A stretch of DNA of 64,000 nt, taken from NCBI GenBank assembly GCA_963842525.1, contig CAWJGT010000008.1, positions 32,001 through 96,000 of the forward strand, read 5' to 3'. The translations under genes were made by a program, and so were the position numbers. Positions 3,038-37,262 of the stretch are shown one piece after another; within the stretch, counting starts at the first letter, position 1; the number at the start of each line of letters is the position of its first letter. The notes below the pieces were generated by a model. It was not told where the DNA came from, made no database searches, and saw only the letters and a program-made list of their open reading frames with translations. This DNA comes from an uncultured Holophagales bacterium (GTDB taxonomy: Bacteria > Acidobacteriota > Thermoanaerobaculia > Multivoradales > UBA5704).

Positions 3038-3531
3038 GGGGCCTTGATCTCGGCTTCGTACCAGCATCGCTGGCCCGCCGACTCCTGCACCGAGACGGCC
3101 AGGGTGTCCACCCGCGAACCGGCGAGGCACGGCGCCAGCTCGTCCCAGAGCAGGCGCGCGAGCAGCTCCATCGAGGTGTTGACCAGCGGCAGCAGGAGGA
3201 TGTCGTCGGCGGGGAACCGGTAGACCCTGTCCGCGAAGCGCACCTCGACGGCCCCCTCCTGCTGGGACCAGTGCAGGTGCCGGCTCTCGGACGGCAGCAG
3301 GGTGCGGCTGTCCAGGCGGGCGCAGCGCTCCCGCAGCGTCCTCTTGAAGCTCTCGAGGTCAACCAGCAGCCCCTCCCCGTCCAGCCCTTCGCCGGACAGC
3401 TCGACCTGCACCTGGTAGTTGTGGCCGTGGAGGAGCTCGGCCCGGCCGTCGGGGAAGATCGTGAAGTGGGCGGCCGAGAACTTGATGTCCTCCTTGGCGA
3501 GGGCGATGCGGTAGCGGGGGAGGTTTGGCAT
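3034..3531 (-). CDS. 6-pyruvoyl-tetrahydropterin synthase family protein (ExxHGH, PTPS-III type)
   Basis: FSAAHF...ELLHGHNY...VD...NTSMELLA...VQES T-fold motifs. Confidence 0.85.
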   Translation of the reverse strand: MPNLPRYRIALAKEDIKFSAAHFTIFPDGRAELLHGHNYQVQVELSGEGLDGEGLLVDLESFKRTLRERCARLDSRTLLPSESRHLHWSQQEGAVEVRFADRVYRFPADDILLLPLVNTSMELLARLLWDELAPCLAGSRVDTLAVSVQESAGQRCWYEAEIKAP

Positions 3532-3559
3532 GAGGCCGATTCTATCCGCGCGCGCCGAA

Positions 3560-3662
3560 CGCCCGGCGATGAATCGCCGGGCTAGCAATAGCGCCCCATG
3601 AATGGGGCTTGAAGCCGGGTTCACCCGGCGCTGTTCCTAGCCCGGGCATTCATGCCCGGGCG
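3560..3662. repeat. REP/BIME-like doublet of inverted palindromes
   Basis: Four hairpins: gcccggcgat-gaatcgccgggc, gccccatgaatggggc, gccgggttcacccggc and gcccgggcattcatgcccgggc. They form two inverted units with CTAG feet. Confidence 0.7.
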
Positions 3663-3749
3663 GCAGGGCGGCGCAGCTCACCTCAATGGGGGGCGCTGTA
3701 AGATGCTGCCGCTCCTCCTGCGTGGAGCCGCCAGAGAAAGGACGCGACC

Positions 3750-6365
3750 ATGCCCTTGTCCTCCCGTCCGGGCCTTGCCCGCGCGCTGCCGGTCCTGCTG
3801 CTGCTCCTCTTCGCCGCCGCGCCCGGGGCCCCCGAAGGGCGGCAGCCTTTTGCGCCCGACGCTCCTCCCCAGGACATGCCGGAGCGGACCTTCGACCTCC
3901 GGCACCTGCGGCTCGACCTCGTCTTCGATTGGAAGGAGGGCGAGGTCGCCGGGACCGCCACCAACACGCTCGCGCCGCTGCGCCCCGGGACCGACACCCT
4001 GGTCTTCCACGCCGCCGGCCTGCAGGTGTCGAAGGTGCGGCTTGCCGGCGCGGAGCTGCGGTTCTCGTTCGACCCCAAAGCCGAGACCCTGACCGTACGG
4101 CTCGGCCGCGCCTATGGCCCCGACGACGTGCTCGATGTGGCCGTCGACTACACGGCCCGCCCGCGCGCCGGCCTCTATTTCGTCGGGCCGGACGAGGGTT
4201 ATCCCGACAAGCCGCGCCAGGTCTACTCGCAGGGAGAGCCCGACCTCAACCGCCACTGGTTCCCGAGCTGGGACTACCCCAACGACCGCACCACCAGCGA
4301 GCTGCTCGCCACGGTCGAACGCCCCCTCCAGGTCGTCGGCAACGGCAAGCTGGTCGAGGTGCTCGACCGGCCCGACAGCCGGCGTACCTATCACTGGCGG
4401 ATGGAGGAGGCGCATACCACCTACCTCGTCTCGATCGTGGCGGGCGAATTCGTCCGGGTGGCCGACCAGTGGAACGGAATCCAGATCGAGTACTACGTCC
4501 AGCCCGGCCGGGAGGAGGAGGCCCGCCGCTCCTTCGGTGACACGCCGAAGATGATGGAGTACTTTTCGACCGTCACCGGCCGGCCCTATCCCTACGCCAA
4601 GTACGCCCAGAGCACGGTCGTCGACTACATGTGGGGCGGCATGGAGAACATCACCGCCACCACCCAGACCGAGCGGACGCTGCACGACGCCCGCGCCGCG
4701 CTCGACATTTCGAGCGAGGGCCTGGTGGCCCACGAGCTCGCGCATCAATGGTTCGGCGACCTCGTCACCTGCCGGAGCTGGGAGCACGCCTGGCTCAACG
4801 AGGGCTTCGCCGACTACATGACCGCCCTCTGGGACCGGCACGCCCACGGGCCGGATGAATTCGCCTGGGAGGTGGACGACCTGCGGCGTGCCTACTTCGC
4901 CGAGGACAAGGACGAATACCGGCGGCCCATCGCCACCAAGCGCTACGCCGACCCGATCCAGTTGTTCGATGCCCACACCTACGAAAAAGGGGCGCTCGTC
5001 CTGCGCATGGTCCACGGCCTCCTGGGCGAGGAGACCTGGTGGCGGGCGGTGCGTCAGTACCTCGCGCGTTTCGCCGGCCGGACGGTGACCACCGCCGACT
5101 TCCAGGGCCTCTTCGACGAAGTCTCGGGCATCCCGCTCAGCCCCGTTGTCGAACAGTACGTCCAGGGCGCCGGCCATCCTGAGCTTGCGATTCGCTGGGA
5201 CTGGCGGCCCAAGGAGCGCATGGTGCGCCTCGCCGTCGAGCAGACCCAGCAGGTGACCGGCGAGACCGGGTTCTTCGCGCTTCCGGTCGAGATCGGGCTG
5301 GTGGGAGAAAAAGGGATCGAAATCCGCCGCGTGCAGCTCGAGCCGCGACGCTTCCAGGATCTCGACCTGCCCAGCGAGGAGCGCCCGCGTACGATCGTCT
5401 TCGACCCCAGCGCCTGGACGCTCGCCACGGTCGTCTTCGACAAGCCGCTCGCCGAGTGGATCGTCCAACTGGAGGCCGCGGACGGCCTGGCCATGAAGCT
5501 CGAAGCCCTGCGCGCCCTCGGCGAGACGGGAGGCGGCATGGCCAAAGGGGAGGCCGAGGCGGCGCTCGGACAGGCACTCCGCGAAGAGCCGTTCCGCGGC
5601 GCCCGCCAGGTCGCGGCGCAGTCGCTGGCAAAGCTCGGCACCGATGCCGCGCTGGCCGAGCTGAAGGCCGGCCTGAAAGACCGCGAAGGCCGCGTGCGCA
5701 CGGAGATCCTGAAAGCCCTGGGCTCCTTCCCGCAGCACCGCGAGCTGGTGCCGGTCCTCGTGCGAGCCCTGGAGCAGGAGGAAGGACCCTATGCGCGGGC
5801 CGCAGCCGCCGAGTCTCTGGGGCATTTCGAGGAATTCCGCGCCGAGGCATCTCCGGCGCTCCTCCGAGCCCTCTCCCAGAAGAGCCACGGGGATGTGATC
5901 ACCGGAACGGCGATCAAGGCCCTGGCCGACCTCGGGGCGCCGCAGACCTTCGACCATGCGGTCCGCCTGGCGCGCTACGGAGCGCCGATCAACAGCCGCG
6001 ACGACGCCTTCCTTGCCCTGGCCAAATACGCCACGAAGCAGGGTCCTGACGTGCGCACGAAGGCCCGCCGCGTCCTGGAAAGCTACCTCGACGACCCCTC
6101 CTATCTGGCACGGCGCGGTCTCTATCCAGCCCTGGCCGAGCTCGGCGATCCAGCCGCAATCCCGGCGCTCGAAAGGGCCGCGCGCAACGAAACGGACGCC
6201 CAGCAGCGCCTGAACGCCGAGGACGCCATCGCCAAGCTGCGCGAAGCGCCGACCGAGCCGGTCTCCACCGAGGTGGCGGCGGATCGTCTCCAGCAGCTCG
6301 AACGGGAGGCTGAGGTGCTCCGCCAGAGGGTTGACGAGCTGGAGGAGGAGACCTCACCTCCCTGA
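3750..6365 (+). CDS. Secreted M1 family zinc aminopeptidase with C-terminal HEAT-like repeats
   Basis: Signal peptide; GGMEN, HELAH...WLNEGFA and YEKGA motifs; helical repeats of the VRTEILKALG type. Confidence 0.93.
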   Translation: MPLSSRPGLARALPVLLLLLFAAAPGAPEGRQPFAPDAPPQDMPERTFDLRHLRLDLVFDWKEGEVAGTATNTLAPLRPGTDTLVFHAAGLQVSKVRLAGAELRFSFDPKAETLTVRLGRAYGPDDVLDVAVDYTARPRAGLYFVGPDEGYPDKPRQVYSQGEPDLNRHWFPSWDYPNDRTTSELLATVERPLQVVGNGKLVEVLDRPDSRRTYHWRMEEAHTTYLVSIVAGEFVRVADQWNGIQIEYYVQPGREEEARRSFGDTPKMMEYFSTVTGRPYPYAKYAQSTVVDYMWGGMENITATTQTERTLHDARAALDISSEGLVAHELAHQWFGDLVTCRSWEHAWLNEGFADYMTALWDRHAHGPDEFAWEVDDLRRAYFAEDKDEYRRPIATKRYADPIQLFDAHTYEKGALVLRMVHGLLGEETWWRAVRQYLARFAGRTVTTADFQGLFDEVSGIPLSPVVEQYVQGAGHPELAIRWDWRPKERMVRLAVEQTQQVTGETGFFALPVEIGLVGEKGIEIRRVQLEPRRFQDLDLPSEERPRTIVFDPSAWTLATVVFDKPLAEWIVQLEAADGLAMKLEALRALGETGGGMAKGEAEAALGQALREEPFRGARQVAAQSLAKLGTDAALAELKAGLKDREGRVRTEILKALGSFPQHRELVPVLVRALEQEEGPYARAAAAESLGHFEEFRAEASPALLRALSQKSHGDVITGTAIKALADLGAPQTFDHAVRLARYGAPINSRDDAFLALAKYATKQGPDVRTKARRVLESYLDDPSYLARRGLYPALAELGDPAAIPALERAARNETDAQQRLNAEDAIAKLREAPTEPVSTEVAADRLQQLEREAEVLRQRVDELEEETSPP

Positions 6366-24630: not shown

Positions 24631-26303
24631 GCACAGAACTTTCCTCCGCAACCGTCGCACCGGGCCCGGAGACCGGGTACGAACGGCCGAACTATCTGAA
24701 CGCCGCCTATGGCGTCCGTTCGTGGCTCCTGACCCGCGACCACAAGCGGATCGCCATCCTCTACCTCCTCTCGGTCACGGTCTTCTTCGCCCTGGGCAGC
24801 CTGTTCGCCCTGCTGCTCCGCCTCGAGCTGCTGACGCCGGAAGGCGACCTCATGCAGCCCGACATGTACAACCGGATGTTCACCATGCACGGCATCGTCA
24901 TGGTGTTCTTCTTCCTCATCCCCGCGATCCCGGCGGTGCTGGGCAACTTCCTGGTGCCGCTGATGATCGGCGCCAGGGACCTGGCCTTCCCCCGGCTCAA
25001 CCTGGCGAGCTGGTACGTCTACAACCTCGGCGGGATTTTCACTTTATGGGCGATCGCGCACGGCGGCGTCGACACCGGCTGGACCTTCTATACGCCGTTC
25101 AGCACCGCCTACTCGAACAGCTACGTCGTCACCGCGGCGCTCGGTATCTTCATCAATGGATTTTCGACCATCTTCACCGGGCTGAACTTCATCGTCACCA
25201 TCCACCGCATGCGGGCGCCCGGCATGACCTGGTTCCGGCTGCCGCTCTTCATCTGGTCGAGCTATGCGACGAGCGTGATCATCGTGCTCGGGACGCCGGT
25301 CATCGCCATCACCCTGCTGCTGGTGGCGGCCGAAAAGGTGCTCCACCTCGGCATCTTCGACCCCCGGCTGGGCGGCGACCCCATCCTCTTCCAGCACCTG
25401 TTCTGGTTCTACTCGCACCCGGCGGTCTACATCATGATCCTGCCGGCGATGGGAGTGATCAGCGAGCTGGTGGCCGCCTTCGCGCGCAAGCGGATCTTCG
25501 GCTACCGCTTCGTCGCCTTCGCCAGCATTGCCATCGCGGTGCTCGGCTTCCTGGTCTGGGGGCACCACATGTTCCTGACCGGCCAGTCGATCTACGCCAG
25601 CACGATCTTCTCGATCCTCTCGATGCTGGTGGCGGTCCCCTCGGCCATCAAGGTGTTCAACTGGACGGCGACGCTCTACGAGGGCTCGATCTCCTACCAG
25701 ACCCCGATGCTCTATGCCCTGGGCTTCATCGGCCTGTTCACCATCGGCGGCTTGACGGGGGTGATGATCGCCACGCTCGGCATCGACGTCCACGTGCACG
25801 ACACGTACTTCATCGTCGCCCACTTCCACTACATCATGGTGGGCGGCACGATCATGGGCTACATGGGAGGCCTCCATTACTGGTGGCCGAAGATCTCGGG
25901 CAAGCTCTATCCGGCGTTCCTGTCGCGGCTGGCGGCCCTGCTGGTCTTCGTCGGGTTCAACCTGACCTTCCTGCCGCAGTTCGTGCTCGGCTACCTCGGC
26001 ATGCCGCGCCGCTACTGGTCCTACCCGCCCGAGTTCCAGGTGCTGAACGTCCTGTCGACCGCGGGGGCCTCGATCCTCGGCGTCGGCTACATCCTGCCGC
26101 TCTTCTACTTCGCCTGGTCGATGCGCTACGGCGCGAAGAGCGGCGACAACCCGTGGGGCGCCCTCGGCCTCGAATGGGACACGCCGTCGCCGCCGCCGAC
26201 CGAGAACTTCTACACCCCTCCGGTCGTCACCCACGGACCGTACGAGTACAACCCGCAAGAGGTGCACGACCGCACCTCGCATCCGGAGGCACGCGTTGGC
26301 TAG
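24627..26303 (+). CDS. coxA: Cytochrome c oxidase subunit I (A2-type)
   Basis: [20 protein letters not shown] (YS motif), [17 protein letters not shown] and GMPRRY motifs. Confidence 0.96.
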
Positions 26304-27084
26304 CACGACCATGGAACCGCACGCGCACGAAGCGCATCATCACCCGGCGCACCCGGCGCTGCAGCACCAGTTCGACGACCTCGCGCAGCAGAAGGAGTCC
26401 TCGACGCTGGGGATGTGGCTGTTCCTGGTCACCGAGATCATGTTCTTCGGCGGCCTGTTCCTCGCCTACGTGGTCTACCGGCGGGCCTACTCCGAGGCCT
26501 TCCTGCTCGGCAGCAACACGCTGGACGTCCTGCTCGGCGGCATCAACACCGCCGTCCTGATCTGCAGCAGCTTGACGATGGCCCTCGCCATCTGGGCCGC
26601 GCAGGTGAACCGGCGCAAGTGGATCGTGCTCTTCCTGATCGCCACGATCGTCCTGGGTGCAGTCTTTCTCGGCATCAAAACGGTCGAATACAAGGACAAG
26701 TTCACGCACCACCACGTCCCGGGGCCGAATTTCCACTTCGTGCCGGAGCACGGCGGCGAGCATGCCGCGGAGAGCCCCTTCCCCGGTACGGGGGAGAGGG
26801 CCGGGGAGAGGGGGCACGGGATCAACCCGGCCGAAGACCCCCAGCTCGAGCGGCACGCCTCGCTCTTCTTCTCCCTCTACTTCGTCATGACCGGCCTGCA
26901 CGCCACCCACATGATCATCGGCATGATCATCCTCGGAGTGCTGGCCGTCTACGCCTGGAAGGGAAAATACGACAGCACGTACTACAACCCGCTGGAGATG
27001 ACCGGCCTCTACTGGCACTTCGTCGACATCGTCTGGATCTTCCTCTTCCCGCTCCTCTACCTGCTCGGGGCCCACGCGGCCTGA
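26296..27084 (+). CDS. coxC: Cytochrome c oxidase subunit III
   Basis: [24 protein letters not shown] and GLYWHFVD motifs. Confidence 0.95.
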
Positions 27085-27101
27085 GCGCGGAGAACCGAGG
27101 C

Positions 27102-27413
27102 ATGCCCGAGCACCACGAGCACGTTTCCTCCCCCTGGATGTACTTCGGGGTCTTCGCCGCCCTGATGGTCCTCACCGGCATCACCTGGGCCGTCGCCCAG
27201 GTCGACCTCGGCTGGGCCAACGACGTCGTGGCCCTGACGATCGCCGTCACCAAGGCGCTCCTCGTCATCCTCTTCTTCATGCACGTCCGCCACAGCACGC
27301 GCCTGACGAAGCTGACGGCTCTGACCGGGTTCTTCTTCCTGGCGATCCTGATCTTCATGACCCTGAACGACTACGTCACCCGCGGTGCCCTGCTGACGGT
27401 GCCGGGGAAGTAG
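27102..27413 (+). CDS. coxD: Cytochrome c oxidase subunit IV
   Basis: YFGVFAALMVLT...IAVTKALLVILFFMHVR; GAGG RBS. Confidence 0.9.
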   Translation: MPEHHEHVSSPWMYFGVFAALMVLTGITWAVAQVDLGWANDVVALTIAVTKALLVILFFMHVRHSTRLTKLTALTGFFFLAILIFMTLNDYVTRGALLTVPGK

Positions 27414-27532
27414 AAGAGGCAAGATCCCGCTCGCCCGTTGAGGAAAGGGGGTTCCAATGCGACGTCAAGATGGTAGACTACAGACTCAGCCAAAGGTAGG
27501 ATCTGGCCGCGAGGTTAGGGCTCGCTGACGAA

Positions 27533-29326
27533 ATGGAACGAGACGATACAGGCGCTCACCGCTCCCCTCTCGTCTTTATCAGCTATTTCCAGAAACCGCC
27601 GCAGCACAAGAAGAGAGTTCAGGCCTTCGCAGTGCGCCTTGCGAAGGAAGGGCTCGAGGTCGTCATCGACAGTGATCAGGAACCCGAGGAGGGTTGGGCT
27701 GCCTGGTCCGGGCGACAGATCGAGACGGCTGATTATGTTCTGATCATCTTCAGCCCTGGATATGCGAGCGAGGGCAGCGGCGCGTCGAGCCCTGAAGGAC
27801 GCGGCAGCGCATGGGAGCTCCATCTGGTTCAGCAAGACCTCTTTGAATCGAGAGCCAAGAATCACCGCTTCATTCCCGTCCTGTTCTCTGCTGAGCACAC
27901 CGGGCTCATTCCTCGATTCCTCAGGGGCGCCTCCTACTACGATGTCAGTACCGAAGACGCCTATCAAGGCCTTCTGAAGAGGTTGCGCCGGCCCCGCGCG
28001 AAGAGTGCAACTCCGCCCGCGCCACTGGTATCTGCCATGCAGGCGGTCCGCGCCGCCACCTGGACACGCATTGGGCCGATTCCCGAGCCCGCCGATGTGT
28101 ACAAGTACGACCCGTCGGATCGACATTCAATCTTCCTGCGCAACCTTCTACGGAATCCACCTCTAGAAGAGGTGTTGACTCATCACCGCGAGGACCCGCT
28201 GAGGATTCTCAGCATATGGGGTGCCAAGCACGACAAGGACCGGATCGACTACCACCTTGGTCACCTCTACGTCCTCCAGAAGTTGCGAGATTTTGTTGGC
28301 GAACCTTCGGTCCGGACCGAGCTCTTCCTCGGCATTAATCCGATGGCGAGCTTTACCAACCCTGAACGGGCTCGCCGTCAGGCAGAATATCTTGAATGCA
28401 CCGAAAAGCTGGTACGTTCCGTCCTTGGAGATCAAATCCGGATCGACAACTGCCTGAAGAGTGCCGATCTCCCCGAGGTCCGCGACATTTGTGAGCAGGC
28501 TAAGCGGACGTATTCCGAGGTCATCGAAAAGCTGGTCTCCATCTTCGACGTTGACCGGGTGAGCCAGATCCGCACGAGCCTGCCGGCAGCAGATCAGGAA
28601 GCCATTCTCAGCGAATTGGAAGCCGCCTTCGAGCTTCCCCGGGAGCAGGCCGAACAACTGTTTGAAGATTTGAAGGCATTCTTTGGCACGAAGAAGCCCT
28701 GGCTCCATGCCGAATTCGAAAGAGAGCACCGCCGCCAGCTCTTTGTCTACACCCATGCAATCGCGAAGCCGCACTGTATCCTGGTGAGCACGCGTCACCT
28801 TGCCCAATGGCGATGGTACCAGGCCGTCCTCTGGCTGGGCAAGATGAACCCAGTCCCCGAGTTGATCCTCCTCGACGCGTTCCGAGACCCGAACGATGAC
28901 GAGCCCATGAGATCGGGCGCCGGCCTGCCGATCTTCCTTATGGATCTCCCGAGCGAGACTCGTGCGAAGCTCGAGTACGCCAGCACGAGTTTCGAGTATT
29001 TCCTGCCGCAGTGCTTCGACTATCTCATCTTTCCCCAGCAGGAGGAGGTCGAGGTCGTTGCTTCCGGGACGGACCGGCGGACGGTTTTTCTCAAGGCACC
29101 GTGGAACTTGTCCCGCTACCGCGAGCAGCGCCTCGGCTCCCGCGAGATCCTAGCCGCCTGCCAGCAGCAACTCCTGCGCCTGTTCGAAAGGCATCGGCAG
29201 GTCGTCTCCAAAGCGCGGCAGTCCTTCTATGAGTCTCATACAGGTTGGATCAGCCTCACGAACGCACAGTGTCTGGCCCAGGCGGCGAGCTGGTGCGGTG
29301 TCACATTGGAGGAGCAGAGCTTCTGA
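27533..29326 (+). CDS. SEFIR/TIR domain fused to a class Ic aminoacyl-tRNA-synthetase (TyrRS)-like domain
   Basis: N-terminus: VFISY...RVQAFAVRL...GW..WSGRQIETADYVL...GRGSAWE...FIPVLF. C-terminus: HLGH (HIGH motif, H241), then PMRSG...IFLMDLPSETRAKL...YLIFP, resembling the KMSSS region of archaeal-type TyrRS. Confidence 0.75.
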   Translation: MERDDTGAHRSPLVFISYFQKPPQHKKRVQAFAVRLAKEGLEVVIDSDQEPEEGWAAWSGRQIETADYVLIIFSPGYASEGSGASSPEGRGSAWELHLVQQDLFESRAKNHRFIPVLFSAEHTGLIPRFLRGASYYDVSTEDAYQGLLKRLRRPRAKSATPPAPLVSAMQAVRAATWTRIGPIPEPADVYKYDPSDRHSIFLRNLLRNPPLEEVLTHHREDPLRILSIWGAKHDKDRIDYHLGHLYVLQKLRDFVGEPSVRTELFLGINPMASFTNPERARRQAEYLECTEKLVRSVLGDQIRIDNCLKSADLPEVRDICEQAKRTYSEVIEKLVSIFDVDRVSQIRTSLPAADQEAILSELEAAFELPREQAEQLFEDLKAFFGTKKPWLHAEFEREHRRQLFVYTHAIAKPHCILVSTRHLAQWRWYQAVLWLGKMNPVPELILLDAFRDPNDDEPMRSGAGLPIFLMDLPSETRAKLEYASTSFEYFLPQCFDYLIFPQQEEVEVVASGTDRRTVFLKAPWNLSRYREQRLGSREILAACQQQLLRLFERHRQVVSKARQSFYESHTGWISLTNAQCLAQAASWCGVTLEEQSF

Positions 29327-29327
29327 T

Positions 29328-30569
29328 ATGGCTCAGGTCCTCGACGAGCAGCCGGAGGCATTCAGCGATCTCTATTGGCAGGTGATCGATTCTGTCTGCG
29401 CATTCCTGACCACGAAAGCTGCAGGCAACAAAGGCAGCCCGAAGATTCTTGGGCGGCTCTTGGAGCTCGTCCAGCGCATGAAGGATCTCGACGTCTACCA
29501 TTGGCTGACGGAGAAAGCCTACCGGGACGAGTACAGCCACGTTATCAACGTCGGCGTCTGCGGACAGATCCTGCTCGGAAACGTACAGGCCGAGGGCCAG
29601 ACTCTGGGCGCACTGATCCGCAAGCTCCTGGGCTGGAACGAGCAGACATCCGATTCGCTGATAGAGGCCACTTGGTGGCTGACGGCTTTACTCCACGATC
29701 ATGCCTACCCCATCTCACACTTCCTGCGGCACTTCGGCCCGCGTACCTATGTGGAGCGCTCGCGGTCAGGAGGGCCGCGGGAGAATCTTCCGGAATCGTG
29801 GCTCCGCTTTTCCTCGTCGCTCGCCGACCTGGTGCAACGGCTAGCTGGAGGACGCTTGCGCACACTTCTCCAAGACCTCCAAGGAGGAGAGCGCTTTCCC
29901 GATTTGGCTAGCTATAGAAGAAAGATTCAGGCCGAGTTGACGAGCATCATCCGCAGGCACAATCTGCTCGGGGATTCCGGGCCCCACACGTCGGACCTCA
30001 CCTGGGAGACCACTGTCGACCATGGCATCCTGGCAGCGCTCAATCTCTACGAATTCGCCGACGCCGAGAGTCTTTTGCATTCCAGAGACAGGAGCGCGTG
30101 GCAGCCGATTGACTACGTGGCCGACGCGATCGCTGTTCACAACCATCCCGGCCTCCGCCCCATGCTCAAGTTCGAGGAGAATCCATTCGCCTATGTACTG
30201 GCCCTCGCCGACGAGATCCAGGAATGGGGTAGGAGCGCACTCAGCGAAGACTATCTCCATCCGATCGCCAAGGTCGACATCGGACCCTTCTTCGAGGAGC
30301 AGGGCAAAATGACCTCGCTTCCGGACCGGCGCTTGAAGGTCCGCTTTTTTGTGGCCGACGCTTTTCGCCGGCAGGAGCTGCGGTGGAGCCTGGAGCGTTT
30401 CGAGAGAAGCAAAAACGATACCTTCAAACGGCTGGCGCTCCCGGTAATCGATCCAACAGGATCAGATCCAGAGTTGGGTGCACGAGAGTTGCTGCGAGCC
30501 ATCGACTATGAGCTGCGCATGGAAGGGATGAAGTTCCACGGAGATCCTCCAAAACGTGAACGCATCTGA
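29328..30569 (+). CDS. HD-domain phosphohydrolase
   Basis: YRDEYSHVINV...ALLHDHAYP...DHGILAA...AIAVHNH...LALADEIQEWGR. The ATG lies 1 nt after the upstream stop. Confidence 0.82.
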   Translation: MAQVLDEQPEAFSDLYWQVIDSVCAFLTTKAAGNKGSPKILGRLLELVQRMKDLDVYHWLTEKAYRDEYSHVINVGVCGQILLGNVQAEGQTLGALIRKLLGWNEQTSDSLIEATWWLTALLHDHAYPISHFLRHFGPRTYVERSRSGGPRENLPESWLRFSSSLADLVQRLAGGRLRTLLQDLQGGERFPDLASYRRKIQAELTSIIRRHNLLGDSGPHTSDLTWETTVDHGILAALNLYEFADAESLLHSRDRSAWQPIDYVADAIAVHNHPGLRPMLKFEENPFAYVLALADEIQEWGRSALSEDYLHPIAKVDIGPFFEEQGKMTSLPDRRLKVRFFVADAFRRQELRWSLERFERSKNDTFKRLALPVIDPTGSDPELGARELLRAIDYELRMEGMKFHGDPPKRERI

Positions 30570-30582
30570 CTCGGGAGGACAT

Positions 30583-31446
30583 ATGATCGAACGCATCCGC
30601 ACGTATTCGGCCATTGACACACCCCAGGACATGGCAGCGGCCGCCAAGGTCCTCGAACAGCGCTTTGACATTGAATTTACAGTTCTCTTGCACTTCAAGC
30701 AAGGCTTGCTTCATAGCCTCCAGAGTGCGAACGGCTCTCCGGAAGACCTTCCTGAGGGGGCCTTTGTAGCCTCCCGTTCGGATCCGGGTGTGCTCGAGCT
30801 GTTTGGCGAGTTGACCTGGATCGCCAACTCGGGCACCCTGACGGTGGAGAAACGGCGGCGCTACCTCGCGGCCCTCCAAGCGATCTATCGGCGGCTTCCC
30901 GGCTCACCGCTGGACTGGATGAGCGATCCCGGTGCCCTTTTCGTCGCTCCTGAGCGCGAGGGCCGAATCCTAGCCGAGACCCTGGGCTGGCTTCCTTCCG
31001 GCCGGTCGCTCCGGCCACATGTCAAGAGGATCCACTATGGCGATGACCTGGTCGTAGGACTGGGCGACTTCGTGCCCAGCCGGCGAGCTTCCAGGTGCAT
31101 CCTGATTGACGGGGCAATCGCCAGCGGCGCCACCCTGATCTCCCTGATCGAACGGCTTCGGGCTTTCACCGAGTATTTCTCGATCTATTCAGTGCACGCG
31201 ACATGCGAGGGACTGCGTTGCATCCTGGCCTACGGCCGGGAGGCAGGCGTTAAGATCTCCATCACCGTCGGCCATGCGACGCCGGGTATCAATCGGCATT
31301 TCTACGCAGTCGGCTCCGATGGACGTGTCATGGTGGGCGACCTGGGTGATACAATTGCACCGCTCCTAGACGCGATGTTTGAGCCAGCCCATTCGGACCG
31401 GAAGGATGACACGGGCCTTGATCTGCAAGTTCCGTTCCTGAGCTGA
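30583..31446 (+). CDS. Phosphoribosyltransferase-fold protein (UPRTase-like)
   Basis: VAPEREG, PRPP loop ILIDGAIASGATL and C-terminal VGDLGD (compare UPRTase GDAGD); GGAGG RBS. Confidence 0.72.
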   Translation: MIERIRTYSAIDTPQDMAAAAKVLEQRFDIEFTVLLHFKQGLLHSLQSANGSPEDLPEGAFVASRSDPGVLELFGELTWIANSGTLTVEKRRRYLAALQAIYRRLPGSPLDWMSDPGALFVAPEREGRILAETLGWLPSGRSLRPHVKRIHYGDDLVVGLGDFVPSRRASRCILIDGAIASGATLISLIERLRAFTEYFSIYSVHATCEGLRCILAYGREAGVKISITVGHATPGINRHFYAVGSDGRVMVGDLGDTIAPLLDAMFEPAHSDRKDDTGLDLQVPFLS

Positions 31447-31467
31447 CCTACCTGCGCGCGTTAGGTG

Positions 31468-32085
31468 AACTCATGGGGCGCCCTCGGGCTCGAAAGGGCA
31501 TCCCTTCGCTGCCACGTCCCGGGGCCGAATTTCCACTTCGTGCCGGAGCACGGCGGCGAGCATGGCGAAGAGACCTCCCTTTCCCCCGGTACGGGGAGAG
31601 GGCCGGGGAGAGGGGGCACGGGGTCAACCCAGCCAAAGACCCCCAGCTCGAGCGGCACGCCTCGCTCTTTTTCTCACTCTACTTCGTCATGACGGGCCTG
31701 CACGCCACCCACATGATCATTGGCATGATCATCCTCGGAGTGCTGGCCTGGTACGCCTGGAAGGGGAAATACGACAGCACGTATTACAACCCGCTGGAGA
31801 TGACCGGCCTCTACTGGCATTTCGTCGCCGCCCTGATGGTCCTCACCGTCATCACCTGGGCCGTTCGCCCAGGTCGACCTCGGCTGGGCCAACGACGTCG
31901 TCGCCCTGACGATCGCCGTCACCAAGGCGCTCCTCGTCATCCTCTTCTTCATGCACGTCCGCCACAGCACGCGCCTGACGAAGCTGACCGCTCTGACCGG
32001 GTTCTTCTTCCTGGCGATCCTGATCTTCATGACCCTGAACGACTACGCCACCCGCGAAGTCCTGCTGTCGGTGCCGGGCAAATAG
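31468..32085 (+). pseudogene. Decayed partial duplicate of coxA 3' end, coxC and coxD
   Basis: Matches about 26148-26194, then 26712-27026, then 27156-27413, with substitutions, two internal deletions and frameshifts. Confidence 0.9.
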
Positions 32086-32351
32086 GGGCCGGGTCCGCCG
32101 GGGCATAGCGGCCCCGTCCTGTCCTTTCTCTGTTGTCAAAGAGCCTCACCCTCCCACGATCCGCGGATCGCGCTCCACCCTCGGTCAATCGGCATCATCC
32201 GCCTCCTTCGGTATGCAGTAGCCTGCCACACTCAAACGGCGGAGTCAACAAGGGACTTGACAACCATCGCACCTCGTGCAACCTATGCGCACGTCAGGTG
32301 CCGCTTCCGGTGCCGGATGTCCGAGCCCTCGGGCTCAAGAAGGAGAAGGAA

Positions 32352-32723
32352 ATGGCTGAAGCAACCTATGCAGGGAAACTGGGCGCACTGGCGCGGTTCA
32401 TCGCCGCGCTGATCGCCAACGCGTCCGAGCTCGTCCACCTGGACGGCATTCGTGTCCGGATCGAAGCGATCCTGGCCGAGGCCCAGGGCGTCGCGCGGGA
32501 GCAGGCCGCACTCACCGCCAGCAAGCAGGAGGCGAGCCAGCGCATCCGGGCGCTGCTCACCGAAGGCGACCGGCTGATGACCGCGGCAAGCAAGGTCCTC
32601 CAGGAGCACTACGGCCTGCGGTCCGAAAAGCTCGCGGAGTTCCACCTGCAGCCCTTCCGCGGCCGCAAGCGCCTCGGCAAGGCCGGACAGCCGGAGCCTC
32701 CACCCGCCCCCGCCGCCCAGTAA
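32352..32723 (+). CDS. Hypothetical helical/coiled-coil protein (123 aa)
   Basis: AAGGAG-type RBS, GC-rich codon usage and a downstream terminator hairpin. Confidence 0.75.
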   Translation: MAEATYAGKLGALARFIAALIANASELVHLDGIRVRIEAILAEAQGVAREQAALTASKQEASQRIRALLTEGDRLMTAASKVLQEHYGLRSEKLAEFHLQPFRGRKRLGKAGQPEPPPAPAAQ

Positions 32724-32732
32724 CGCCACCCC

Positions 32733-32764
32733 GGGGAGCGTGCCCACACGCTCCCCCGTTGTTT
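32733..32764 (+). terminator. Terminator-like hairpin
   Basis: ggggagcgtg-ccca-cacgctcccc followed by cgttgttt. Confidence 0.55.
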
Positions 32765-32803
32765 CCGCTCCCCACCGCCAAGGCTCCGACCGACATCCAC
32801 GCC

Positions 32804-33125
32804 AGATCAGCGTATCCACCGTAGATATAGAGTATCCGAGCCAGATAAGGATATCCGGCGCGGATAACACTATCCACCGTAGATAAGCGTATCCGCCACG
32901 GATAAGCGTATCCGCCGCAGATAAGCATATCTCTGCCGTAGATAGCCTTATCCGGCGCAGATAAGGATATCCGGCGCGGATAACACTATCCAGCGTAGAT
33001 AACGTTATCCACCGCGGATAAGCTTATCTGGCGTAGATAACACTATCTGGCGCGGATAAGCTTATCCACGCCAGTGTAAGCTTATCTGGCGTGGATAACG
33101 GTATCTGGCGCAGATACGCTTACGC
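32804..33125. repeat. Tandem array of about 17 units of 19 bp: RGATAA-NNN-TATCY palindrome plus a 5-bp linker
   Basis: Example units: agataaggatatcc-ggcgc, ggataacactatcc-accgt, agataagcgtatcc-gccac. Confidence 0.9.
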
Positions 33126-33545
33126 TGGCCGTCCAAGCCTGTCCGGCGCGGAGAATCCGTCCGCCACAGAGGACGGTATTCGCACTGTCACAAGCCATCC
33201 AGCGCAGATCATGAGATCGTCCGTGCCGTTCGTAAGATACTCTCGGCATGCCAAGAGGATCTCGAGCTGTCTAGCAATCGATTCCGCTCGGCGATGGATC
33301 CGCGCGGTAGTCTGGTCAGACGCGCACCCCGGTTGCCGCAAAAAAGAGCCCTCAGAGAGGCTCAGGCACGTGGCCCGGGGGCAGGCGTGACGCGCGAGAA
33401 CAATGCGAAGGCATGCTGTTCCTCTCATCGATATAGCCTCCGATCTGACGCCGACGTGGATGCCGATGAGCGACGGCTTTGCCGTCCACTCGATCGGCCG
33501 GGTTGGCCGCTGCTTCGCCCAAGTGTCATAGTTTATCTACTTGCA

Positions 33546-34040
33546 TCACCGCCCGAACTCCGCTCTCAAGCCGGCATCCGCCGTGTCCAGCGCTTCGGCC
33601 AGAGCATCGAGCGCGGCGATGACACTCTCCAGATTGAACCAAACGTCAGTCGCAATGGATCGCTGACCACGCTTATCAACGGGATAGCGGAAGGCGAATG
33701 AATCCGGATCTATATTCTCGAGGTAAGCTAAAAGTCGTTGCACATCCGCCATCGTCTTGACTAAGGGATTCAGCGGCCACTCCCACCCCACAAGCTTGAA
33801 CACATCTTCGACACGCGGAAGCAACGGCAACAATTTATGATTTCCTAGGCTCTTGAAAAGTTTCTCGTCGTCGGCAGGGCTTGCTGTGCGCGATCTGTTG
33901 CCAACAACGACAATCGACTTGAGATAGAGCTCGCTTGCGTGGCGATACATGAACAGTACCGGCGCTGTAGCTAACTTTGAGACCCCACCTCGGGGCGGAG
34001 GGGGGGCAGGGGTCGCAGATTCGGCCCGCGCAAAGCCCAC
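33546..34040 (-). pseudogene. HEPN-like protein, probably 5'-truncated
   Basis: PVLFMYRHASELYLK...HKLLPLL...IDPDSFAFRYP pattern; lower GC; no convincing start. Confidence 0.55.
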
Positions 34041-34198
34041 GCGGCTTCGCCGGAGCCATACGCAAAGCTGCGCACAAGTCTGAGCGGTTCAACCAAGGCC
34101 CGCAGGGCCAGCCAGGAAGGCCTCGAGAACACCTCAACTAGGCCGGGGAGAAGAAGAAAATCGGAACCGTAGCCCGGGTGACTACACCCTGACCGAGC

Positions 34199-35143
34199 TC
34201 AGCCTCGGAAGACGTCCTGGAGACTCTCGGCAGTCAAGACGCGCTCACCCCATTCCAGGAGACGATCCGTATCTGCAGAAGCCACCCGCTCCTCGATTTC
34301 AGGCTCCAGAGGGCCGAACTTCAAGCGGAGGAGACGAAGCAGCAGCCGGGCTTCCCCCTCTTGGCGGCCTTCTTCTCGGATCTCACGGTTCCAACGGTCG
34401 ATGCTTTCAGCCAGCATGGTTTCGAGCTCCTCAAGAGACAGAGTGGCAGAAAACTTCTCCAAGGACAATCCAAGGCGCGGCAGGATGACTGTCACCAGCC
34501 AGACCTCGAAGGCCCGCCGCAAGGAAGCCTCGCTCGGCGGAATGCTGCGCCGCAGCCGGTGAACGCTCGATTGGACCTCCACCCAGTCGCGGCTCTTCTC
34601 GATCCGAAACAGGTCGGCCACTGGACTCTTCAGTGCCGCCAGTGCCTCCCGCGGATAGGCTCCCTCGTCCACCAGCAGATACCGCAACTGCGGCCGGTAG
34701 ATCTCCGCGGACGGGTCCAGCTTCCCGATCAAAGAACCGAGGTCCGTCGACACGTTCCACGGCCCCTGCCCAGTGTAAATGAGGACGGGGATGACCAGTG
34801 GCAGCGTTTTCCAGGCCTTGGCTGGCTGGCCAGCCAGCAGGGTCTGGTAGAAGAGGTACTCGTATCCCATGAAGCGGACCGGCATGGAGGGGTCCGGCCG
34901 CGACTGGAACTCCAGGAGGATGTAGACGTAAACCGGATCCTCTCCATCCTTGCGCCGGAACTTCCAGATGACATCGCTCTCGCGCCTCTCCTGCTCGTCG
35001 GCGACGAAGGAGGCATTGACCCGCTCGCCGGAGTCGAAGTCGATGAGCTCCACCCAGCGCTCGCCGACGATCTCACGCAGGAGATCCTCGATCATGCGCC
35101 GGTGGTTGAAGAAGCGTCGGTAGCTGAGGTCGTGCTGTCCCAC
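34199..35143 (-). CDS. Rpn/YhgA-like recombination-promoting nuclease (PD-(D/E)XK) with DUF4351-like tail
   Basis: HDLSYRRFF, RESDVIW, YILLEFQSRPD, VLIYTG and GRQEGEARLLLRLLRLKFG motifs. Confidence 0.9.
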   Translation of the reverse strand: MGQHDLSYRRFFNHRRMIEDLLREIVGERWVELIDFDSGERVNASFVADEQERRESDVIWKFRRKDGEDPVYVYILLEFQSRPDPSMPVRFMGYEYLFYQTLLAGQPAKAWKTLPLVIPVLIYTGQGPWNVSTDLGSLIGKLDPSAEIYRPQLRYLLVDEGAYPREALAALKSPVADLFRIEKSRDWVEVQSSVHRLRRSIPPSEASLRRAFEVWLVTVILPRLGLSLEKFSATLSLEELETMLAESIDRWNREIREEGRQEGEARLLLRLLRLKFGPLEPEIEERVASADTDRLLEWGERVLTAESLQDVFRG

Positions 35144-35662
35144 GATTTTTCCCGCCAGGACTCTACCACGGATCTTGGCTGGGGATAACGCACTTGCGTT
35201 ACAACTCCCCACCTATCGAAGACGCGAGCCACCAGCTCGACGCGGTCGCCGCGGAGATGATGGCAGCGTCTGTCCCCGTGCGCCAAGCAGCCGCCGTGGG
35301 ACGACAACCCACCCGCCACCTATCCCCATCGCGCAGCTCCCGCGAAGGCGCTCCCCATCTAGAATGTTGACGAAAAGGCATCGTCACCGGCACGCCAAGC
35401 AGCTGGGCGGGGATGGCAGCGCCCAACCACCCGCGCGAGGTCCACCCGGCCGCGGAGAAGGCAACGTCCCGCCCCCGCGTCCCGGAGCCGATCGCGAAGG
35501 CGTGCCCCCACCAGCCGCTGACGCACTCCGCTACCACAACCACACCGATGCCGAGCTCGAACGCCGCCGCCGGGAGCTCTACGGCCTCGCCGACATCACT
35601 GTGACGTGCTTTCTGAAAGAAAGGAACAGGGCCACGGCCCACCCAGCCAAGGAGCCTTCGGG

Positions 35663-37262
35663 ATGACCTCACTCCGGGCAATCATCTACTGCCGCGTCAG
35701 CAGCAAAGAGCAGACCCTCAACCTCTCCCTCCCAGTCCAAGAAGACCAGTGCCGAGCCTTCTGCAAGCAGAATGGCTGGGAGGTCGATCGTGTCTTCATG
35801 GAACGCGGCGAGTCCGCCAAGACCGCCAACCGCACCGAGCTGCAGGCGGCCCTGACCTACCTGCGCGAGCAGAACAAGCGCACCGTCCGGGTCCATGTCT
35901 TCGTCGTCACCAACGTCGACCGGTTCGCCCGCGACGCCTTCGATCACGCGATCATCCGCCGCCACCTGGCCGGCCTCGGCGTCACCCTTCGAGACGTCAG
36001 CAAGCCCATCGACGAGACTCCGGCCGGCAAGTTCATGGAGGGCATCTTCGCGGCCCTCTCCCAGTTCGACAACGACGTCCGGGGCGGACGGACCAAGGCA
36101 GGCATGCAGGAGGCCCTACGCCGCGGCCAATGGGTCTGGAAGCCACCTCTGGGCTACCGCCGGACAGCAAGACCCTGCAGCTCGACCCCGAGCGCGCGCC
36201 GCTCGTCCGGCTCGGCTTCGAGCGCTTCGCCACCGGCCTATACACCAAGGCGCAGGTTCTCGAAGAGCTCAACCGGCAAGGCCTCCGCACCCGGCAAGGC
36301 CGCGAGCTGTCTCCCCAGAAGTGGGGCGAGATGCTCACCAACCGCGTCTACATCAGCCGGATTCTCCAGCGGACCTGGAACATCGAGACCATCGGCAACT
36401 GGCCTCCCCTGCTCGACGAAGACACCTTCTGGCGCTGCCAGAGCCTCCTCGCCACGAACGGCGAGATCGTGCCGAAGGAGCGCAACAACCCGGACTTCCC
36501 GCTCCGGAGCTTCACCACCTGCGGCCACTGCGGGCACCCCCTCACTGGCTCCTGGTCTCACGGCAAGCGCAAACGCTATGCCTACTACCACTGCCCGCCG
36601 AAGGCCCGCTGCCGCAAGACGAACATGCCCCGGCGCGAGCTCGAAGCCAAGTTCCTGAGCCTCCTCGAGCGCCTGCGGCCGCGCCCCGAGTTCCTGGCCC
36701 TCTTCCGGGCCCTCGTCCTGGACGTCTGGAAGGCTCGGAAGGAAGACGTCGCCGCCCAGCGGACCGCCGCCGAGCGGAAGATCGCGGACCTGAAGCGGCG
36801 CAAAGACAACTCGTCGAGGCCTTCATCTACCAGAAAGTCATCGACGAGGGCACCTACAAGGACCAGCTCGACAAGCTCAACGAAGCCATGACCCTGGCCG
36901 AGATCGACCAGCACGACCAGAGGGCGGACGAGCTCGACATCGAAGCCGTCCTGGGCTTCGCCGAGAGGGTCTCCCTGAATGCCCCGAGGCTCTGGCTGGA
37001 AGCCAACCTCGATCAGCGTCAGAGGTTCCAGGCGTTTCTGTTTCCGGAAGGATTGGAGGTCGTGGAAGGGGAGATTCGAACACCCGTAACTGCCTCATTC
37101 TACGAGGAGTTACAGCACTTCACTACCCCTGAGGAACGTTTGGTAGCCCACGGCGACACGAGTTCGAACACTACCACACGGCTACGGCCCTCGGCCTTTG
37201 CGCGCTTGGAGAAATTCCTCCGGCGGGTGGACTCTTTCAGACGCCAGCAGGTTGCGGCCTGA
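35663..37262 (+). CDS. Large serine recombinase (about 533 aa) with two -1 frameshifts (near 36160 and 36810)
   Basis: AIIYCRVSS, GESAK...R, DRFAR, PPLGY, Zn ribbon CGHCG...YYHC and a coiled coil, spread over three frames. Confidence 0.85.

Follow-up and report, generated by a model that had tools for sequence, protein, structure and literature searches.

Catalytic domains of class I aminoacyl-tRNA synthetases (aaRS) were reused beyond the charging of tRNAs for translation, as exemplified by GluQRS/YadB and by the cyclodipeptide synthases (CDPSs), the latter of which lack the HIGH motif. In type II Thoeris, it is TIR that makes His-ADPR. bSEFIR was described in two preprints as a single-protein anti-phage system acting by NAD+ depletion via an N-terminal SEFIR domain (10.1101/2024.02.11.579819; 10.1101/2022.05.11.491447). 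For HD enzymes, the six-ligand pattern H..HD..H..H..D was described as diagnostic of a dinuclear site, as present in YqeK, in phosphodiesterases and in oxygenases (PMC8177086). Salvage of NAD+ was outlined as the conversion of a base and phosphoribosyl pyrophosphate (PRPP) to the mononucleotide, followed by adenylyl transfer (PMC9503650). Here, we analyze a three-gene cassette at positions 27,533 to 31,446 of a 64,000-nucleotide stretch of DNA from an uncultured Holophagales bacterium (assembly GCA_963842525.1, contig CAWJGT010000008.1, positions 32,001 to 96,000), called the window in the following, to which all coordinates refer unless a locus is named. The cassette encodes a SEFIR domain fused to a diverged tyrosyl-tRNA synthetase (TyrRS)-like domain, an HD-like protein and a uracil phosphoribosyltransferase (UPRTase)-like phosphoribosyltransferase (PRTase).

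Comparison with the nearest relatives strongly supports a link of the Rosetta-stone type between the TyrRS-like and the HD-like protein, and in these relatives a TyrRS-like-HD core recurs beside a nucleotide enzyme that changes from locus to locus. For the cassette as a whole we tentatively favour a bSEFIR-type NADase module, i.e., an anti-phage module with SEFIR as effector, combined with a new part that handles nucleotides as sensor or enzyme. A sequence-only reading of the same stretch had proposed a new defence or signalling system formed by all three genes; what stood of this idea is the narrower link between TyrRS-like and HD-like protein, visible in fusions and in the nucleotide enzymes encoded nearby, and not a conserved three-gene system, and the role in defence or in the metabolism of a modified nucleotide that it suggested might apply.

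A SEFIR-TyrRS-like fusion, an HD-like protein and a UPRTase-like enzyme

All three genes are encoded on the plus strand. Gene 1 (27533..29326; 597 amino acids (aa), P0001) encodes the fusion of the N-terminal SEFIR/TIR domain to the TyrRS-like domain, which belongs to the HIGH superfamily, gene 2 (29328..30569; 413 aa, P0002) the HD-like protein and gene 3 (30583..31446; 287 aa, P0003) the UPRTase-like type I PRTase. Genes 1 and 2 are joined by TGA-T-ATG, leaving a spacer of 1 nucleotide (nt), and genes 2 and 3 by TGA, 13 nt and ATG. At both junctions a GGAGG-type Shine-Dalgarno site is located just upstream, and these sites together with the short spacers therefore make genes 1 to 3 look like a single, translationally coupled operon. 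A frameshift artefact as cause of the separation of genes 1 and 2 is considered less likely, as TGA-T-ATG with its own Shine-Dalgarno site looks like a real coupled junction.

The SEFIR domain spans residues 11-146 of gene 1 (27563..27970, plus strand). In Pfam, the N-terminus matches TIR_2 (7.6e-13, 49.5 bits) and SEFIR (7.9e-12, 46.1 bits). The PADLOC model for bSEFIR matches residues 11-153 with 4.2e-30, covering only positions 38-182 of the 412 profile positions, and the structures retrieved from the PDB were SEFIR proteins only, namely Bacillus SEFIR (5y8f/5y8e, 5.5e-5) and human Act1 (5.9e-4). The motif G89-x-G91-x-x-W94-E95 contains the glutamate E95 (codon at 27815-27817), which is invariant in five of five aligned bacterial SEFIR domains and which aligns to a glutamate in 5y8e/5y8f, but not in Act1. 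The public gene call has its start 33 codons later (564 aa) and would drop the first SEFIR strand. With the Pfam match starting at residue 14 and the PADLOC match at residue 11, the ATG at 27533 is favoured as the putative start of gene 1. The same genome encodes further SEFIR/TIR proteins on contigs C1, C25 and C9 (loci L002, L003 and L004); a 684-aa open reading frame (ORF) combining SEFIR, a Ser/Thr kinase and an FGE-sulfatase domain, a 337-aa SEFIR protein and a protein of 657 aa with TIR_2 at its C-terminus were observed in this genome.

The approximately 410 residues of gene 1 following the SEFIR domain match no Pfam family. A profile of P0001 and 29 relatives retrieved 48 matches from the PDB, 45 of which were TyrRS and two TrpRS enzymes, the best being 3n2y_A with 2.6e-7. 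The alignment to 3n2y_A is composed of two stretches, i.e., the HIGH region, with HLGH placed on HLGH, and the KMSKS loop with the next strand and helix. With a five-sequence profile made of the TyrRS-like parts alone, eight of nine PDB matches were TyrRS/TrpRS. The domain covers residues 187-592 (28091..29308, plus strand), the envelope found by hmmsearch on gene 1 with a profile of the N-terminal halves of fused relatives (E 9e-84). The HLGH motif (H241-L-G-H244; 28253-28264, plus strand), an R-H pair and the methionine of the KMSKS loop are invariant in eight fused relatives, the KMSKS lysines are not conserved, and the equivalent loop of gene 1, P-M-R-S-G at residues ~458-462, is degenerate. 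The middle region, forming the amino-acid-binding pocket in TyrRS, is not alignable in this family. The Pfam family tRNA-synt_1b does not match P0001 and gives weak matches in three of 30 members, the best scoring 16.5 bits and thus below the cut-off of 21.1, and no anticodon- or tRNA-binding domain was recognised in the TyrRS-like protein. Judged at the profile level, the C-terminal part of gene 1 is a diverged homologue of a class Ic aaRS catalytic domain, which probably still binds ATP. A genuine second TyrRS was rejected on account of the degenerate KMSKS loop, the Pfam scores below threshold and the fusion to SEFIR.

Gene 2 contains the ligand set H71, H123-D124 (29694-29699), H232, H271 and D295. 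All residues from H123 to D295 of this set are invariant in 52 sequences, H71 is present in at least 90%, and an insert of ~100 aa is located between the HD motif and the third histidine. Pfam gave no HD match for P0002 and weak HD matches for three of its 52 relatives (best E 0.0022), the profile of the gene 2 family had no meaningful match to a solved HD protein in the PDB, and the comparison with YfbR-type HD by hhalign resulted in a probability of 0.11. The neighbours of gene 2 in the Atlas are mostly unnamed; one cluster carries HD in 16% of its members, and an HD-CE cluster scores 0.89. It is the six-residue motif only by which gene 2 is classified as HD-type, so that the HD hydrolase proposed by the sequence-only reading holds for the full H...HD...H...H...D set and is not backed by Pfam or the PDB.

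The connection between genes 1 and 2 emerged from a HMMER scan of 1.84 billion representative sequences, in which 258 relatives of gene 2 were found at E<=1e-3. The three best of them, P0127, P0128 and P0129, are proteins of 800-824 aa that match gene 2 with their C-terminal halves at 37-43% identity, and the N-terminal half of P0127 aligns to residues 189-595 of P0001 with 38% identity (E 1e-97). P0128 and P0129 likewise carry both parts in a single chain, and P0005 represents the same TyrRS-like/HD fusion, cut by a contig end. Moreover, the TyrRS-like N-terminal part is recognisable in at least 26 of the 149 HD-family representatives listed at 50% identity. A word-indexed search with P0001, done with the whole protein and with residues 185-597, returned the protein itself, P0005 and two SEFIR-only matches and missed P0127 to P0129, which were found by HMMER. 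In a quick maximum-likelihood tree of the HD parts, P0002 is placed within a clade with four fused proteins (SH-aLRT 99). Therefore, as far as this tree and the collinearity of the halves with the fused forms indicate, the separation of genes 1 and 2 in this genome is derived and lies exactly at the linker.

Gene 3 carries the PRPP loop D176-G-A-I-A-S-G-A-T184 (31108-31134, plus strand) and the C-terminal motif G252-D-L-G-D256, and the conserved columns of both are invariant in 45 sequences. The family is characterised by the motifs DGAIASGxT, an E-R-E-G-R loop and the C-terminal G-D-x-G-D, and by a family-specific N-terminal extension of ~110 aa. Six of the seven PDB matches of the family profile were UPRTases, with the best, 2e55_A, at 0.0065 and with the motifs in register; Pfam Pribosyltran matches gene 3 with E 0.16 (11.7 bits versus a cut-off of 26.3). 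NCBIfam has no family for any of the three cassette proteins. The UPRTase-like PRTase of the sequence-only reading is thus borne out by the PRPP loop and the GDxGD motif, and weakly by the profile match. All further residues named in that reading, i.e., E95, H241/H244 and the gene 2 ligands, are present as well; its SEFIR/TIR domain with the GxGxxWE glutamate is firm by Pfam, PADLOC and the PDB, and its synthetase-like domain agrees with the 47 of 48 PDB matches that are TyrRS/TrpRS.

A word search with gene 3 retrieved 176 proteins at E<=1e-3 with 40-50% identity. Among 120 listed homologues, at least six are fused to a YfbR-type HD nucleotidase and at least one to a methyltransferase. A xanthine/uracil-permease homologue is encoded in the same locus in 29 of 37 gene 3-family loci (species-representative genomes with fetched flanks), and five to seven of these 37 also encode an S-adenosylmethionine (SAM) methyltransferase, a SLOG-cluster-4 protein and an ABC importer. 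The permease neighbourhood and the fusions therefore make the usual job of the gene 3 family look like nucleobase salvage or modification. A conserved PRTase operon was observed in Acidobacteriota, Planctomycetota and Armatimonadota (L006-L008, L010-L012, L040), composed of genes for an ABC importer, a protein of 229 aa, a member of SLOG cluster 4, a SAM methyltransferase, the PRTase, a permease of the xanthine/uracil type and a protein of 619 aa; this gene content suggests a route by which a modified nucleobase is imported and processed.

Gene neighbourhoods, distribution and genomic setting

The three genes were not found together elsewhere. None of the 37 gene 3-family loci encodes a relative of the TyrRS-like or HD-like protein (tblastn, E<=1e-3), none of 60 HD-family metagenome loci encodes a member of the gene 3 family (tblastn and hmmsearch), and no SEFIR domain was found in these 60 loci. 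The sequence-only reading had named the lack of co-occurrence elsewhere as an outcome speaking against its three-gene system, and this is the outcome obtained from the 37 PRTase and 60 HD-family loci.

What recurs instead is a nucleotide enzyme adjoining the TyrRS-like-HD gene, as observed in five of six distinct loci. In L043, a GTP cyclohydrolase II gene, the start of which abuts the stop codon of the core, is followed by Maf; L051 encodes a nucleoside 2-deoxyribosyltransferase (NDT), L055 a radical SAM protein, L050 a methyltransferase ORF of uncertain start, and L060-62 an NDT deoxyribosyltransferase together with a thymidylate-kinase-like gene. No recognisable enzyme neighbours the core in L044. 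In L043, a PLD-family nuclease-like gene (3211-4884, minus strand; PLDc_2 1.4e-23, weak match to the NgoFVII N-terminus) was observed 3 kb upstream of P0127, the closest fused relative, which might point to a defence neighbourhood.

Among 92 same-strand neighbour ORFs, Pfam identified HATPase_c in eight, Radical_SAM in six, REC in six, NDT in two and ThsB_TIR in two; phmmer with the local TIR/SEFIR queries did not retrieve the ThsB_TIR-matching ORFs. In L057, L058, L063 and L066, B12-binding radical SAM genes are located directly upstream of HD-family genes encoding 629-795 aa, an arrangement reminiscent of OxsB/OxsA of oxetanocin biosynthesis. In L045 and L046, genes for a GAF-GAF-histidine kinase, for REC as a stand-alone domain and for a REC-HD-family protein follow one another, and from this gene order one HD-family branch is judged to be an output domain of two-component systems; a REC domain is present in five of 52 HD-family members. 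Distant HD-family loci also contain DeoRC/PGI genes and a STAND ATPase.

The distribution of the cassette genes is sparse. P0002 and the gene 3 PRTase family were each found in none of 60 related genomes, and both genes are single-copy in their own genome. The core profile matched four of 401 sampled genomes of the same phylum, three of these, i.e., all besides the genome itself, with short, weak matches to the HD core, and it matched none of 401 genomes sampled from another order and none of three further genomes. The three cassette proteins are singletons in 90% clusters. A tblastn search with P0127 of 72,556 plasmid and 50,697 phage records remained without a core-family match; among viral contigs, the core-family scan yielded one locus, with the HD part only, and the scan for the gene 3 family none. 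One soil-metagenome DNA run shares a small fraction (0.11) of the sequence words, and no RNA run is listed in the sequencing-run index as carrying words of the cassette.

The cassette interrupts the end of a cox operon. On its left, the intact operon end (26296..27413, plus strand) encodes coxC/COX3 (26296-27084, plus strand; Pfam COX3 5.1e-19) and coxD/COX4_pro (27099-27413, plus strand; Pfam COX4_pro 2.8e-16), of which 26712-27413 forms the first copy of a direct repeat (repeat families D3, D4, D7 and D8). On its right, a decayed partial cox duplicate forms the second copy (31468..32100, plus strand; COX3 fragment, Pfam 7.4e-7). This duplicate is a mosaic composed of a 31-nt remnant from the 3' end of coxA, the 3' part of coxC with indels and coxD up to its stop; it is frameshifted, carries an internal deletion of 131 nt across the coxC/coxD junction, ends at the same coxD stop and is 92-96% identical to the intact copy. 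Direct repeats of host sequence of ~0.6 kb thus bracket the cassette on both sides. The guanine-cytosine (GC) content of the cassette is 0.58-0.61, lower than the 0.63-0.70 of the cox operon and of more distant sequence. In five genomes of the same genus, the cox operon is shared up to the coxD stop, with synteny ending at ~27395, and nothing of the window beyond. Taken from these sequence comparisons, the cassette is a recent, lineage-specific horizontal acquisition at a synteny break. The sequence-only reading had already described three co-oriented genes, 1 and 13 nt apart and less GC-biased than the cox operon, between coxD and a decayed cox duplicate, and its account of the layout agrees with ours down to the ORF coordinates.

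The identity of 92-96% suggests that the cox duplicate is either old or was imported from a related donor. A YhgA/Rpn-type putative transposase gene is located 2.8 kb downstream of the cassette (34199-35212, minus strand; Pfam Transposase_31 4.8e-25 and DUF4351) and might be linked to the rearrangement by which the cox segment was duplicated. At 32803-33122, between two ORFs without Pfam family, a 19-nt unit (consensus CAGATAAGCTTATCCGGCG) is repeated in tandem 16.6 times, and the copies contain TATCC...GGATA half-palindromes. Several copies read TTATCCAC, which to our eye resembles a DnaA box. The array, which has no Rfam match, could be composed of iterons or represent an array of binding sites for a regulator. 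Further downstream, very long ORFs of 1919, 1516, 1351 and 3161 aa follow in a row (37394-61752, plus strand). An Rfam scan of 26500-35500 (E<=1) detected neither a riboswitch nor any other RNA, and the scan for promoters and terminators performed no better than on shuffled sequence.

Possible functions of the cassette

In the bSEFIR-type reading that is tentatively favoured here, we infer a NADase activity, a role in defence, the chemistry of the single steps and the participation of the PRTase. The core would be formed by a TyrRS-derived domain of the HIGH superfamily and a dinuclear HD-type domain, comprising ~800 aa in the nearest relatives, which in this genome would have been split at the linker and would have gained SEFIR at the N-terminus. 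The SEFIR domain with its conserved glutamate would cleave NAD+ as in the single-gene bSEFIR, and the TyrRS-like/HD pair, replacing the C-terminal region of bSEFIR, would bind, or make and destroy, a nucleotide-type ligand. Retention of HLGH suggests adenylylation chemistry for the TyrRS-like domain, which might adenylylate a carboxylate or phosphate substrate by its attack on the alpha-phosphate of ATP. The six-ligand HD pattern likewise suggests that the HD part may hydrolyse a phosphoanhydride or a phosphodiester. Finally, the UPRTase-like enzyme, presumably recruited from a nucleobase-salvage family, might supply or remove the base-ribose-phosphate substrate and would thereby fill the slot that is held by other nucleotide enzymes in the relatives. 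The partner enzymes of the core all make, break or rework base-ribose-phosphate units. As bSEFIR reportedly uses the SEFIR domain at its N-terminus to deplete NAD+, a SEFIR-effector module with a swapped C-terminal part is the simplest model.

Several observations weigh against this reading. In the data searched, the three genes occur together nowhere else, and none of the relatives seen shares the SEFIR fusion. Genes 2 and 3 have no PADLOC match, and the bSEFIR model covers the SEFIR part only; the sequence-only reading had expected the cassette to be free of PADLOC matches, which is the case for genes 2 and 3 and not for gene 1. No known defence genes were identified beside the cassette, the neighbouring ORFs at 32133-32723, 33546-34040 and 35895-37262 being without Pfam family, and the lack of plasmid or phage matches together with a single viral locus is unusual for mobile defence genes. 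Members of the wider HD family are also found in two-component (REC, HisK, GAF) and sugar-metabolism (DeoRC, PGI) contexts, and the HD fold of gene 2 was confirmed neither by a PDB match nor by hhalign. Without conserved lysines in KMSKS, ligand binding rather than catalysis may be the role of the TyrRS-like domain, and the gene 3 PRTase, which in its family is typically a salvage enzyme encoded beside a permease (29 of 37 loci), could be a passenger.

This last point leads to an alternative in which genes 1 and 2 alone constitute the functional unit and the PRTase arrived as a passenger in the same transfer, performing ordinary nucleobase salvage. The frequent pairing with a xanthine/uracil permease, which we take to be like that of upp-uraA, agrees with it, as do the findings that no core relative is accompanied by a PRTase of the gene 3 family and that the PRTase is single-copy here and absent from the 60 relatives. 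However, gene 3 follows gene 2 on the same strand after a 13-nt spacer with a strong Shine-Dalgarno site and at the same low GC content, no permease is encoded beside it here, and a nucleotide enzyme next to the core is the rule in the relatives (five of six loci). We regard a mere passenger as unlikely. More room has to be given to a cassette for the biosynthesis or salvage of a modified nucleoside or nucleotide, serving as secondary metabolite or signal, although we doubt it. Here the PRTase would build a non-canonical nucleotide, to which the TyrRS-like domain would attach an amino acid or AMP with ATP, the HD part would trim phosphates, and SEFIR would act as N-glycosidase or base-exchange enzyme of the pathway instead of as an immune effector. 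The retained HLGH fits such a pathway, and so do the nucleoside-modifying enzymes that accompany the core (NDT, GTP cyclohydrolase II, radical SAM, methyltransferase, kinase), the B12-radical SAM genes directly upstream of HD-family genes (L057, L058, L063), and the PRTase-family operons with permease, SAM methyltransferase and SLOG and their fusions to YfbR-type HD and methyltransferase; OxsA is described as an HD enzyme (PMC8177086). On the other hand, the best SEFIR match is a defence model, the KMSKS loop is degenerate, the cassette lacks a transporter, regulator or resistance gene, and it is a singleton instead of a conserved gene set. We furthermore know of no biosynthetic role of SEFIR domains.

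A regulatory role was considered as well, in which the core is an alarmone synthetase/hydrolase pair following a RelA/SpoT-like logic, with SEFIR and PRTase as lineage-specific add-ons and without a function in defence. The aaRS-derived domain would make a dinucleoside polyphosphate or an adenylylated nucleotide, which the dinuclear HD would degrade. aaRS enzymes can make diadenosine tetraphosphate (Ap4A), and members of the HD family serve as two-component output (REC in five of 52; REC-HD beside GAF-HisK in L045/L046). The Ap4A hydrolase YqeK is the only dinuclear HD phosphatase listed in PMC8177086. The distribution of the core, with none of 401 genomes in one order and one strong match among 401 in its own phylum, is in turn unlike that of a core regulatory system, and no evidence points to the product, which makes this the least probable of the explanations. 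Almost as improbable appears to us a more far-reaching proposal, according to which the core and an exchangeable enzyme (PRTase, NDT, GTP cyclohydrolase II, radical SAM or kinase) represent a new class of aaRS-derived synthases for nucleotide signals or antimetabolites. The partner would make a non-canonical nucleotide, the TyrRS-derived domain would aminoacylate or adenylylate it with ATP, the dinuclear HD would reset the system, and in this genome the product would be wired directly to the SEFIR NADase. If this is true, a tRNA-synthetase paralogue would for the first time be seen to make or sense the second messenger of an immune pathway.

Comparison with known systems

Within the bSEFIR-type reading, the closest described system is bSEFIR itself (Millman et al. 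2022; PADLOC PDLC03957), which shares with gene 1 the N-terminal SEFIR domain with conserved glutamate followed by a large C-terminal region. In contrast to bSEFIR, the C-terminal region of gene 1 is TyrRS-like and unrelated to that of bSEFIR, and two further genes follow. Gene 1 matches positions 38-182 of 412 and hence does not cover the full model. As stated in the Millman preprint for the selection of bSEFIR, the SEFIR match had to be stronger than that to TIR by HHsearch (10.1101/2022.05.11.491447). For gene 1, the Pfam scores are 49.5 bits for TIR_2 versus 46.1 bits for SEFIR, and the PDB matches are to SEFIR only. Type II Thoeris, which the sequence-only reading had brought up, resembles the cassette in combining a TIR-superfamily domain with amino-acid/nucleotide chemistry, but no ThsA-type effector is encoded here and Thoeris has no TyrRS-like domain, which in the cassette would provide the link to an amino acid. 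Membership in Thoeris was rejected, as the three proteins match no PADLOC Thoeris model.

For the single parts, the relation to described enzymes is similarly partial. The HLGH motif and the KMSKS-loop region of gene 1 align at profile level with archaeal/eukaryotic-type TyrRS (class Ic; 3n2y, 2cyb), whereas the degenerate KMSKS loop, in which only the methionine is kept, the unalignable pocket and the fusions to SEFIR and HD set it apart. GluQRS/YadB and CDPSs can be likened to the TyrRS-like family by description only, and in contrast to CDPSs this family keeps HIGH. Gene 2 shares the six-ligand pattern with dinuclear HD enzymes such as YqeK, PgpH, HD-GYP and the HD domain of Cas3, as far as these are covered by PMC8177086, but lacks a significant sequence match and has the additional insert of ~100 aa. 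Gene 3 aligns with Upp/UPRTase in the PRPP loop, in R-x-G of the flexible loop and in the C-terminal G-D-x-G-D, and differs from Upp and upp-uraA by the ~110-aa N-terminal extension, the borderline E of 0.0065 and the lack of a permease here. The pairing of a PRTase and a HIGH-superfamily domain with a NAD+-cleaving domain has a counterpart in NadV with NadM/NadR and in phage NARP2. Unlike in the NadV/NMNAT pairs, gene 3 is a type I UPRTase-like enzyme and the HIGH domain is TyrRS-like, and no homology was found.

In the literature searched, neither a SEFIR-TyrRS-like fusion nor a TyrRS-like-HD system is described; supplementary tables, which might list such architectures, were outside this search. 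The exact combination is known from one genome only, which limits its value. As a summary, the cassette may represent a SEFIR-based module with a new set of partner domains, and the core family itself may be new. Provided that it is active, the cassette would extend the repertoire of SEFIR/TIR NADases in immunity by a new sensor or enzyme module, and it would provide the first functional handle on an uncharacterised TyrRS-like and HD family, the consistent partners of which are nucleotide-modifying enzymes. A class I aaRS domain in conflict or nucleotide signalling would be relevant for the evolution of aaRS, for bacterial immunity and for nucleoside natural products.

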